From positions 57,544 through 121,543 of IMG/VR virus record IMGVR_UViG_3300050821_013777: a DNA stretch of 64,000 nt, one strand, 5' to 3'. Position numbers and translations under genes: made by a program. This DNA comes from a virus. Under the pieces are notes generated by a model. That model was not told the DNA's origin and searched no databases. It worked only from the letters and a program-made list of their open reading frames with translations. Positions 59,110 through 60,875 of this stretch are shown here, piece by piece (positions within the stretch are counted from its first letter, which is position 1; the number at the start of each line of letters is the position of its first letter).

Positions 59110-60875
59110 CGCCCTCGGTGATCGCGCTGTGCTTTCGCGTGGTTGCGGTCCGGTTTGCGAGCGTCCCCAGTAGTACCATTGCCGCTGGCCCGTAAACCGG
59201 CGATTCCATTGGATCGTGTTCTGTTCACCACCTCGGCGCTCGTTGAGAGAGTTCGGATAGCGTGGCGGGGATGCCCCGCCTCCGGTTGGATCGCAGCTTG
59301 CGCCACGTCCGTCTCGATAACGGATTGCTCCGCTATCGCCCGGTTGTCAGGGCCGAGAGCGCTTATTGGGCTTTCGCCCTCATCGCCATCCGGGCTCGCC
59401 GACGAAGCCATACGGGCTTTCGCCGTCGAGTGATCCGATTCCGCTGACCGTTGAATGGGATTGCTCCCACTTTCCGACGGAGAGTCCCCCCGCCGGTCCC
59501 GCCCCGAGATGTTCTTCGGGACAAAATCTTCTGGATCGTACTGGCGCAGGTTCTCAGCCGAGTTCGCTTCTCGGTCGATTCGCGCTCCACACGCCGGACA
59601 CGAGAACCCTGAATAGCCTGGGTCGGTCTCGCGCACGCCTCCACAGTTTGAGCAGCGCCGCGTGCTTGGATAGTTCGACGGGGCGATGACAGTCTCGCCC
59701 CCGTTCCATTTCTGCTTGTACTCGATCTGGCGCCGCACCTCGAACATCGCCGCCTGCGCGACGCCTGGTGCGAGGGCGTTCCGCTTTCGCAGCTCGACGC
59801 CCTCCTTGCCCGCGCGCTGAATCATCCCCTGCACTCGCGAGTCACGCAGCACCAGTACACCTGCGTCGGCCTTGCGCACGATGCGTGTCGTCGCCTGGTG
59901 GATCGCATCCTTTCGCATATCAGCGATGCGCACATGGATCTTCTGTACTCGCTGTACGCATTCGTGCCAGCCGCGAGATTGGTCGCGTGACTTCTTTCCC
60001 TTCACGTGTCGTCGAGCCATCCGTCGCGACCAAAGCGCGAGCTTACGTTTCTCTTGCGCGAGATGCGGCAGGTCTCGAATCGGGACACCGACCATCCCCG
60101 ACTCGGTCACGACTGTGAGCACACGGACACCGACCTCGACGCCAGCACGAGCGAGCTGCGGGAAGTTCTCCTCGCGTTCCTCTTCGAGCTGCACGGCTGC
60201 ATACCAGTCGTCTGCGACCTTTCGAACAGCGAGACCGCGGTAGTTCGCGCCGAGTGGGATCTTGCCCCGATGGTCCCACGAGATTCGAATATCACCGACG
60301 CCTGCTACAGAGAGCCGATCCGACAACCCTTTCGAACCAACAGCAGCGAGCTTCACGGCCTGCGGCTGCGCAACACGGAAGCCCCTCCCCGAAGGCTCCT
60401 CTCGCCCGCGATACTGAGGCTCCCCGAGCTGACAGTGACCATCTCGCGCCGGCCGACACTCACCGTGATTTCCGCGCCCATGCGCTTTCAATTTGCGGAA
60501 GAAGTGCTTGTAGGCGTCGCCGAGATCGTGCAGTGCCTCGCGAACAACATAGGACGACACTTCTTTGAGCCAGGCGGTCGCCGGGTCTTTCTTGATCTGC
60601 GTGAGCTGCTTGTGCAGCGCCATCCATGAAGGCATCTCGCGAGCCGACTTCCACTTCAACAGCGCCTCGCCGAATGCACGAGTTGTTGGATCGGACACGA
60701 CGCTCAGTTGTGCGGCCCACGCATCACGCTCGGCACTCACTCTCGTGTACTGTGCGCGCCACGCAGTGAGCCCCCAGTTGTAAACAAATCTGGCCGCTCC
60801 TGTTTGGCGGGAGAGCCGCTTTCGCTGCTCCACAGTGGGATCGAGCTTGACTCGATAGGCGCGCAGGATCTTCAT
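59097..60875 (-). CDS. TnpB/Cas12f-like RNA-guided protein, predicted nuclease-dead
   Basis: RAYRVKLDPT..Q, ARFVYNWGL, AYKHFF, WYAAV; RuvC-I GVEVG, RuvC-II LRDSRV; IEYK, STRRCSNCG, CPACG; RuvC-III DREANSAENL. The stop codon lies inside the first repeat. Confidence 0.9.
   Translation of the reverse strand: MKILRAYRVKLDPTVEQRKRLSRQTGAARFVYNWGLTAWRAQYTRVSAERDAWAAQLSVVSDPTTRAFGEALLKWKSAREMPSWMALHKQLTQIKKDPATAWLKEVSSYVVREALHDLGDAYKHFFRKLKAHGRGNHGECRPARDGHCQLGEPQYRGREEPSGRGFRVAQPQAVKLAAVGSKGLSDRLSVAGVGDIRISWDHRGKIPLGANYRGLAVRKVADDWYAAVQLEEEREENFPQLARAGVEVGVRVLTVVTESGMVGVPIRDLPHLAQEKRKLALWSRRMARRHVKGKKSRDQSRGWHECVQRVQKIHVRIADMRKDAIHQATTRIVRKADAGVLVLRDSRVQGMIQRAGKEGVELRKRNALAPGVAQAAMFEVRRQIEYKQKWNGGETVIAPSNYPSTRRCSNCGGVRETDPGYSGFSCPACGARIDREANSAENLRQYDPEDFVPKNISGRDRRGDSPSESGSNPIQRSAESDHSTAKARMASSASPDGDEGESPISALGPDNRAIAEQSVIETDVAQAAIQPEAGHPRHAIRTLSTSAEVVNRTRSNGIAGLRASGNGTTGDARKPDRNHAKAQRDHRGRWRS
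59110..59520 (-). ncRNA. putative tracrRNA/omegaRNA-like scaffold with anti-repeat, overlapping the effector 3' end
   Basis: Anti-repeat at 59235-59265 (24/31 identities) and four GNRA-capped hairpins on the minus strand; boundaries approximate. Confidence 0.7.

Follow-up and report, generated by a model that had tools for sequence, protein, structure and literature searches.

Does the end of a TnpB-like effector gene whose reading frame runs into an adjoining CRISPR array encode protein, guide RNA or both? We asked this of a soil-phage locus in the right-hand 64 kb of the 121,543-base IMG/VR virus record IMGVR_UViG_3300050821_013777 (record positions 57,544 to 121,543; estimated completeness 88; record G+C content 63%). 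This whole 64,000-nucleotide (nt) stretch is called the window, and coordinates refer to it unless another locus is named. On its minus strand, an open reading frame (ORF) of 592 codons (60875-59097) is followed by an array (58559-59109) of eight 36-nt repeats and seven spacers of 36 to 40 nt. The TnpB-like core of the effector, residues 1-445 (59541-60875), comprises HTH, OrfB_IS605, RuvC and zinc-ribbon (TNB) regions; residues 446-592 and the stop codon (59097-59540) form an open 3′ extension that ends with a TGA inside repeat 1 (59074-59109).

We conclude that the last ~430 nt of the effector ORF very probably double as a guide scaffold that is derived from an omega RNA and resembles a tracrRNA (trans-activating CRISPR RNA). 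That a structured scaffold RNA lies within the 3′ extension, on the strand of gene and array, and includes an anti-repeat that looks functional is strongly supported. Minus-strand transcription would start from the effector gene, pass through a scaffold body (59508-59265) and then an anti-repeat (59265-59235), and reach the array across a linker of 125 nt; the anti-repeat would pair with almost the entire 36-nt repeat; and the scaffold, together with a repeat-spacer unit, would load the effector and direct it to DNA matching the spacer. We infer co-transcription of gene and array, processing of the transcript, effector binding and DNA targeting, with the effector either cutting its target or only binding it.

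Related loci

About 29 protein clusters of the lineage, from 100% to 30% identity (E 7e-46 or better), precede the point at which ordinary TnpBs begin, and gene calls made elsewhere yield the identical 592-residue protein (P0002). All 17 aligned homologues keep a long tail with a few conserved islands, and the three closest terminate in RWRS or RSRS, meaning that they too extend into a similar repeat. At the DNA level we compared six loci: the window, three from viral contigs (L002, L155 and L193) and two from metagenomes (L059 and L060, the latter also found as a cut copy, L061). The five other effectors are 33-43% identical to that of the window, and each is followed directly by an array on the gene strand, with 15, 5, 11, 3 and 10 repeat copies as counted by find_repeats. 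The repeats are almost wholly different among the six loci except for a common 3′ end, which reads GTCAC in the window, L059, L060 and L155 and GTCAG in L002 and L193.

A scan of viral contigs for close relatives with P0004 found none, and the matches listed for genome contigs were ordinary TnpBs alone (≤32% identity). Four loci came from the metagenome scan, and three of these are family members (L059, L060, L061). Scanning viral contigs for the linker motif described below gave 49 stretches, two of them with an effector relative (L152, which is the L002 contig, and L155); the other 47 encoded no effector relative and were treated as chance matches. The arrays of L002 (5862-6908) and L193 (4782-5546) have repeats that can fold on themselves, degenerate and irregularly spaced repeats at their far ends, and weaker anti-repeats.

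A structured RNA in the 3′ extension

The hairpin-rich scaffold body (S0; 59265-59508, minus strand) coincides with an RNA-library contig. Its predicted folding energy is −121.3 kcal/mol (z −3.94), a value that none of 200 shuffled sequences equalled, whereas 6 of 200 shuffles did as well as the plus strand of the same region (z −2.12). Mean fold z in 200-nt windows ranged from −1.6 to −3.1 in the tails versus −0.8 to +0.45 in the cores (all six loci), and the scaffold fold favoured the sense strand in five of the six.

Seven hairpins were assigned to the body and its edge, all on the minus strand (energies in kcal/mol). H1 (59474-59496), a 9-base-pair (bp) stem with a GGACU loop, is found in all six loci, and H2 (59455-59470) carries a GCAA tetraloop on 5 bp at 59456-59469 (−6.2). 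Toward the array follow H3 (59400-59428; GAAA loop), H4 (59368-59379; GAAA loop, 4 bp, −6.7), H5 (59338-59353; CAA-containing loop), H6 (59316-59337; GCAA loop, with 10 bp and −14.0 over 59315-59338) and H7 (59264-59280; 7 bp, −13.6), which stands directly before the anti-repeat and has a counterpart in all six loci. H3 to H6 were taken from the fold; their counterparts in other loci were seen by eye and not formally counted. A preliminary description of this DNA had listed hairpins at 59315-59338, 59368-59379, 59412-59426 and 59456-59469 and a 7-bp stem at 59264-59280, and all fold as it stated except the one at 59412-59426, which is weaker (3 bp, −4.5). Two anchors, GGAAUCGGA (59434-59442) and CCCGGAUGG (59386-59394), are conserved in a five-locus nucleotide alignment. 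The same elements succeed one another in all six tails: H0; H1 (8-9 bp with a loop of GGACU or similar); AAA; H2; CAAYGG; GGAACCGG; more hairpins; CCGGAU; a CAA-loop hairpin; a GNRA hairpin; H7; and the anti-repeat.

Covariation among homologous loci, one of the checks that the preliminary description had proposed, came out in favour of the predicted stems. Across H1 and H2 in the six loci, 89.4% of cells pair versus 63.3% after shuffling, and double changes occur in 13 of 15 pairs (seven of nine in H1, where 92.3% of cells are paired, and six of six in H2). The covariation score was 0.756 versus 0.281 in shuffles, and none of 500 shuffles reached the observed pairing, double-change or covariation value; when the partners were slid by one to three columns, pairing fell to 34-52%. 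These counts were made on a plain, unfitted MAFFT alignment, and a covariance model built from the H1-H2 alignment, with the refitted alignment, gave the same picture. The H1-H2 segment alone was counted, as MAFFT alignments of whole tails and of segments 2-4 were too poor for pair counts.

Four public sequencing runs contain part of the locus, one of which (X3) is a soil metatranscriptome; we compared them over 58400-61000. Run X3 holds a single 244-nt contig lying exactly on 59265-59508, which begins shortly behind the core and reaches the base of H7, with 0 mismatches and a word depth of 29.9. Folding and loop types, not the contig, served to assign the strand of this library RNA. Runs X1 and X2, which are probably DNA and may be the source samples, cover most of the gene, and X4 touches the gene with poor matches.

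An anti-repeat that changes with the repeat

Immediately downstream of H7, the minus strand of 59235-59265 can pair with positions 1-33 of the 36-nt repeat through 27 bp, three being G-U, at −45.4 kcal/mol. The preliminary description had noticed the repeat-like sequence on the plus strand and proposed that the minus transcript pairs with its own repeats. The sequence is as quoted there, the alignment to the reverse complement of the repeat contains 24 of 31 identities with one gap, and the two further G-U pairs were seen as well. It is the best reverse-complement match to the repeat in the 64 kb (local score 25, versus 20 for the next; the best direct match outside the array scored 23). In a fold check with RNAduplex, this site reached −47.4 kcal/mol, compared with about −38 to −40 at the next-ranking same-strand sites and a minimum of −41.0 among 30 shuffled-repeat controls.

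The same design recurs in every locus: a perfect hairpin (H7, with its own sequence in each), then 0-2 nt, then a stretch pairing over 24-30 bp with nearly all of the repeat found at that locus, whose final 1-5 nt stay unpaired. From anti-repeat to repeat 1 the distance is 123-170 nt (five loci measured). The six repeats differ, the anti-repeats change together with them, and in a cross test the own tail was the best partner for five of the six repeats. G-U pairs in the duplex favoured the sense strand in five of the six loci.

The linker between anti-repeat and repeat 1 (59110-59234, minus strand) contains the motif GCUCGCAAACCGGACCGCAA at 59143-59162. This is the best-conserved 20-mer of the tail and lies 31-39 nt before repeat 1 in all six loci, L193 having a variant of it; among loci gathered by means other than the motif, family loci alone have it in this position.

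An open frame across the scaffold

The conserved core ends at about residue 445, with Pfam and NCBIfam matches stopping at 443-445, and the tail of 147 codons gave no family match. In the AlphaFold model, the core has a predicted local distance difference test score (pLDDT) of mostly 75-94, whereas residues 454-592 fall below 50 (25-39 per ten-residue block beyond residue 460). The preliminary description had spoken of about 145 apparently unstructured codons after RuvC-III, and these results bear it out. At codon positions 1/2/3 the G+C fraction is 0.66/0.57/0.63 in the window tail versus 0.68/0.48/0.70 in its core. Cores of the family have about 0.5 at position 2 and 0.70-0.86 at position 3, and tails 0.57-0.73 at all three positions, so that in all five loci examined the tails lack the coding pattern (low second, high third position) of their own cores.

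The frame stays open across the scaffold, to repeat 1 or to within 18 nt of it, in all six loci. In the window, the tail has no stop in the gene frame, compared with three and two stops in the other two frames. The stop lies within repeat 1 in the window, L002 and L193 and 3-5 nt before it in L060 and L155. At L059, the effector ORF ends early (5413), and an inserted ORF with an HNH endonuclease domain (L059:5082-6374; Pfam HNH_5, 1.9e-13), lying between core and scaffold, continues in frame through the scaffold and stops 13-18 nt before the array; we had at one stage taken the L059 scaffold to be untranslated, which was wrong, as the inserted ORF reads through it. At L059, then, the tail peptide need not be joined to the effector, and the scaffold is kept before the array. 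Dinucleotide shuffles put the chance of such an open frame at 0.05-0.30 per locus (five loci tested), and its retention in six of six loci therefore indicates that something beyond RNA structure excludes stops. Translation through the scaffold may be useful, for example by carrying transcription into the array.

Conservation of the tail peptide is uneven. Its identity is below that of the core in all 16 homologues compared. The peptide encoded by the anti-repeat codons is 100% identical in the homologues of 87% and 82% identity, whose tails overall are 80% and 70% identical. Two islands, PDG and G-x-G-N-R-A, are conserved in the 17 aligned proteins, and both coincide with RNA features: PDG corresponds to the CCGGAU anchor, and GNR to H5, where it covers the loop and the 3′ strand. 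An initial idea that the PDG and NRA islands encode the two strands of one stem was dropped; NRA falls on the loop and 3′ strand of H5, which is a local hairpin, and CCGGAU stands apart as an anchor of its own.

The effector and its RuvC residues

The effector matched Pfam HTH_OrfB_IS605 (1.1e-13), OrfB_IS605 (4.4e-08) and Cas12f1-like_TNB (7.9e-14), and NCBIfam guided_TnpB at 199.6 bits over residues 7-445. The sole CRISPR-specific NCBIfam match was c2c8, at 35 bits versus a cut-off of 350. By sequence, the best solved relative is the AI-designed nuclease 9yyg, followed by the best natural one, ISDra2 TnpB (8h1j/8bf8, E 3.8e-23); by fold, 8h1j ranks first (E 1.1e-21).

RuvC columns were read from HMMER alignments to 9yyg, 9j09 and 8h1j; RuvC-II is gapped in the alignment to 8h1j, and 9yyg and 9j09 agree. 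The reference positions are D191, E278 and D361, which we take to be the catalytic residues of ISDra2 TnpB. In the RuvC-I column, the Asp is replaced by Glu (GVEVGVR; E247 in the window, 60133-60135, minus strand); the RuvC-II Glu column holds an invariant Arg followed by D, E, N or A (R344-D345, 59842-59847); and the RuvC-III Asp column is Glu, sometimes Asp (D434-E436, 59566-59574). These non-canonical columns appeared in 17 of 17 and 16 of 16 sequences in two alignments. The zinc ribbon is intact, and carboxylates are kept at two of the three RuvC positions. Judged from these residues, the effector may only bind DNA, or it may use an unusual active site.

Alternative explanations

Several points weigh against a guide scaffold at this site. 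The DNA evidence comes from six loci, and the close homologues (87-45% identity) are protein sequences only. The scaffold body occurs in one RNA library, a kind of library that can hold DNA, and the contig gives no ends, strand or level; it ends at 59265, before the anti-repeat, and X3 has no cover on core, anti-repeat, linker or array, an absence that we did not weigh. A search of Rfam over 57500-62000 (E up to 1) gave no family match to the scaffold. Pairing energies are less uniform than the shared layout: compared with shuffled repeats, the window and L060 give a clear signal, the margins are small for L155 (−38.3 versus −38.0) and L059 (−34.8 versus −33.5), the L002 duplex (−40.8) is not better than its shuffled minimum (−43.0), and at L193 the own tail is not the best partner, its repeat folding on itself (−16.8 kcal/mol) and its anti-repeat being degenerate. 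Since this signal is marginal or absent in some loci, the case for the anti-repeat rests on common position and co-change with the repeat and not on energy alone. The open frame implies that translation of the tail, or a function of its peptide, is also under some selection, so that the region is not RNA only. No protospacer was found in the databases searched: the window array had none among GenBank phages and plasmids, the seven spacers matched only themselves in the window and in every family or other locus gathered, and the first 26 nt of spacer 1 had 0 matches in viral contigs.

One rival reading is that the tail is a disordered protein segment and nothing else, its hairpins and repeat-like stretch having arisen from composition or from array-derived sequence. 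The frame open to the array in six of six loci and the two islands conserved in 17 proteins would suit such a peptide. Yet the compensatory changes in 13 of 15 helix pairs, anti-repeats matched to six different repeats, the loss of the coding G+C pattern, the fall of the islands on RNA anchors and a hairpin loop, the separation of tail from effector at L059 and a tail pLDDT below 50 all contradict it, and we regard it as extremely improbable. Distinctly improbable, if less so, is a regulatory switch acting outside any guide complex, in which pairing of the anti-repeat or linker with repeat 1 controls read-through into the array or termination of translation. Ribosomes would indeed cross anti-repeat and linker, since each of the six loci has its stop within or beside repeat 1. 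At its 3′ end (CGAGC), the anti-repeat is also complementary to the start of the linker motif (GCUCG), which would permit alternative pairings. That alternative pairing shows no covariation because both of its sides are invariant; moreover, pairing of 24-30 bp along the full repeat is typical of tracrRNAs, and a switch leaves the conserved 240-nt scaffold body upstream unexplained.

If the tail does encode a guide scaffold, the RNA could be used in two ways. Gene tail and first repeat could remain one contiguous RNA, with the anti-repeat pairing to repeat 1 to give a natural single guide for spacer 1, as in omega RNA, and with the scaffold acting in trans on later repeats. TranC effectors reportedly use both a CRISPR RNA (crRNA) and a contiguous right-end RNA (reRNA). 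The minimum-energy fold from H7 to repeat 1 contains the anti-repeat:repeat-1 duplex in all six loci, the frame reaches repeat 1 or ends ≤18 nt from it in each, and GCUCGCAAACCGGACCGCAA keeps its distance of 31-39 nt. No site that could separate gene from array was seen in 58300-61300, where no sigma-70-like promoter was found, and no terminator-like site on the minus strand between them, all five terminator-like sites lying on the plus strand. On the other side, fold prediction will pair any array-adjacent anti-repeat with the nearest repeat, the predicted fold of the linker is not conserved among loci, the RNA-library contig does not span anti-repeat to repeat 1, and the linker motif is equally compatible with an array leader element. 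Such a cis guide, which would supplement the scaffold interpretation without excluding it, is possible but rather doubtful. A plain trans-acting tracrRNA, with scaffold and anti-repeat cut from the 3′ part of the mRNA to pair with every repeat and with the linker serving as array leader only, is quite plausible without being probable. All eight repeats could pair equally (five are identical to repeat 1, two are one-base variants and the last, at 58559-58594, is degenerate), and the RNA contig is short and discrete (244 nt) and does not lie within a long transcript contig, which is a weak indication given that contigs give no ends. Cas12n offers a precedent (PMC12216341; bioRxiv 10.64898/2026.03.27.714800). 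That same contig, however, lacks the anti-repeat that a tracrRNA requires, the conserved motif, with its constant spacing to repeat 1, is left unaccounted for, and the RuvC residues that TnpB uses in self-processing are non-canonical here.

A more elaborate proposal would join the observations on protein, guide and frame. The effector would be a TnpB derivative that works with CRISPR and whose RuvC site has been remodelled (E, invariant R, E or D), and it would bind without cutting or cut unusually; its guide would consist of more than two pieces, with a scaffold body ending at H7 and the anti-repeat, linker and repeat forming a separate or cis-folded module; and the frame would be open to the first repeat because passage of ribosomes carries transcription into the array or times the folding of the scaffold. 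As a whole, we think this combination unlikely.

Comparison with known systems

Helper RNAs within nuclease genes have precedents. In Cas12n (type V-U4/V-N), codons of a disordered C-terminal tail overlap the tracrRNA (PMC12216341; bioRxiv 10.64898/2026.03.27.714800), and the tail is described as ‘unstructured and dispensable’ and as one that ‘contains the tracrRNA’ (bioRxiv 10.64898/2026.03.27.714800). TnpB processes its own mRNA into omega RNA (bioRxiv 10.64898/2026.03.27.714800), and TranC systems are traced to a functional split of the right-end RNA into tracrRNA and crRNA (bioRxiv 10.64898/2026.03.27.714800; PMC13565253). Some TranC systems are on phages, and the TranC clades examined in the preprint have no tracrRNA-bearing tail (bioRxiv 10.64898/2026.03.27.714800). 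The preliminary description had inferred an intermediate state in this locus; it is not a new one, since both the overlap of tail and tracrRNA in Cas12n and the splitting of omega RNA in TranC are already in print (PMC12216341; bioRxiv 10.64898/2026.03.27.714800). The locus shares its arrangement with Cas12n and TranC-type systems (TranC being compared through LaTranC alone) and represents a separate phage-borne lineage.

With Cas12n (V-N, formerly V-U4/c2c9; RdCas12n, 9J09), the locus shares a small effector derived from TnpB, an adjacent array that lacks adaptation genes, disordered tail codons lying over the tracrRNA, an anti-repeat at the 3′ end of the scaffold, and several stems followed by a final repeat:anti-repeat stem. 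It differs in its effector, which matches RdCas12n at E 5e-18 (residues 206-480) versus 3.8e-23 for ISDra2 TnpB, and for which 9J09 ranks 37th by fold versus first for TnpB; by match strengths and fold rank rather than by a tree, it appears to lie outside the c2c9/Cas12n clade. Further differences are the scaffold of ~270 nt before the anti-repeat, compared with the 170-nt tracrRNA of RdCas12n; the conserved 123-170-nt linker after the anti-repeat in the window family; a frame continuing into repeat 1; carriage by a phage; and RuvC columns of E / R / E instead of D / E / D. Cas12n recognizes an A-rich 5′ PAM (AAN) and cleaves double-stranded DNA under RNA guidance, whereas the spacers here gave no protospacer in the searches made and the RuvC columns are non-canonical.

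The effector is closest to TnpB by both fold and sequence. As with the omega RNA (reRNA) of IS200/IS605 elements such as ISDra2, the scaffold lies over the 3′ end of the effector gene on the same strand. Unlike those elements, the locus has an eight-repeat array rather than a single flanking guide, no Y1 transposase and one copy of the effector in the record (transposon ends were not searched for), a scaffold split by the repeat:anti-repeat duplex, and a tail far longer than in the 408-residue chain of ISDra2 TnpB. The H1-H2 model scored 49.5-72 bits on family loci, as expected by construction, and did not exceed 24.8 bits on any of 88 further sources, most of them ordinary tnpB loci. Short matches to H1 only fell exactly at the end of tnpB in five of these (L003:5129-5145, L043:5117-5133, L046:5130-5146, L123:5114-5130 and L138:1856-1874; L123 and L138 are in enterobacterial records). 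Each carries a hairpin of 6 bp, its loop reading GGGCA or GGACA, and further on a GGAACC box, at the position that H1 and the first anchor, which they resemble, occupy in the phage scaffold. With this hairpin and box found after ordinary tnpB genes, the scaffold therefore looks like an expanded omega RNA.

Other type V relatives are less close. TranC (LaTranC, 9JFQ) likewise combines a TnpB-lineage effector with an array and an omega RNA split into tracrRNA and crRNA, a likeness that for our locus concerns sequence anatomy; the similarity to LaTranC is weak (E 1.6e-05, fold rank 21). Cas12f (V-F) also pairs a miniature TnpB-derived effector with a tracrRNA bearing an anti-repeat, and its structures rank 4-10 among the fold neighbours, but sequence matches (E about 0.007-0.01) are confined to the zinc-ribbon region and place the effector outside that family. 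The Cas12f tracrRNA lies between gene and array, unlike the open tail seen here (bioRxiv 10.64898/2026.03.27.714800). TldR and other nuclease-dead TnpB or Cas12f derivatives are described as TnpB-derived, often phage-encoded and altered at RuvC residues; TldR has a single adjacent guide RNA and no array, whereas the window effector has an array, an intact zinc ribbon and carboxylates at two of three RuvC positions.

The basic layout, being already published, will not surprise a specialist. Few systems have a CRISPR helper RNA over the coding tail of a nuclease gene, and the locus joins them as a phage-borne lineage seldom met in the databases searched; the first hairpin, held in common, ties its scaffold to ordinary TnpB omega RNA. 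Effector, scaffold and array make up a compact natural cassette of ~2.3 kb, and the frame open to the array in six loci, together with the non-canonical RuvC, bears on the transposon origin of type V systems.

Surroundings of the locus

No match to Cas1, Cas2 or Y1 transposase was found anywhere in the 121.5-kb record, and six neighbouring ORFs had no Pfam or NCBIfam match. An earlier suggestion that a 78-codon ORF next to the array (58332-58568, minus strand) is a Cas2 fragment did not hold up, as it has no Pfam or NCBIfam match and the record contains no CRISPR_Cas2 match. The sole Rfam trace was a sub-threshold CRISPR-DR23 at 61487-61531, outside the locus. Upstream of the effector, a 50-codon ORF (60887-61039, minus strand) overlaps the effector start through ATGA and may be a small co-translated partner gene, and an AT-richer stretch at about 61030-61070 may be a promoter region, both on a reading of the sequence only. 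Within the array, spacer 6 (58670-58705) has a G+C content of 42%, compared with 55-72% in the other spacers and 63% in the phage, and may have a different kind of target.

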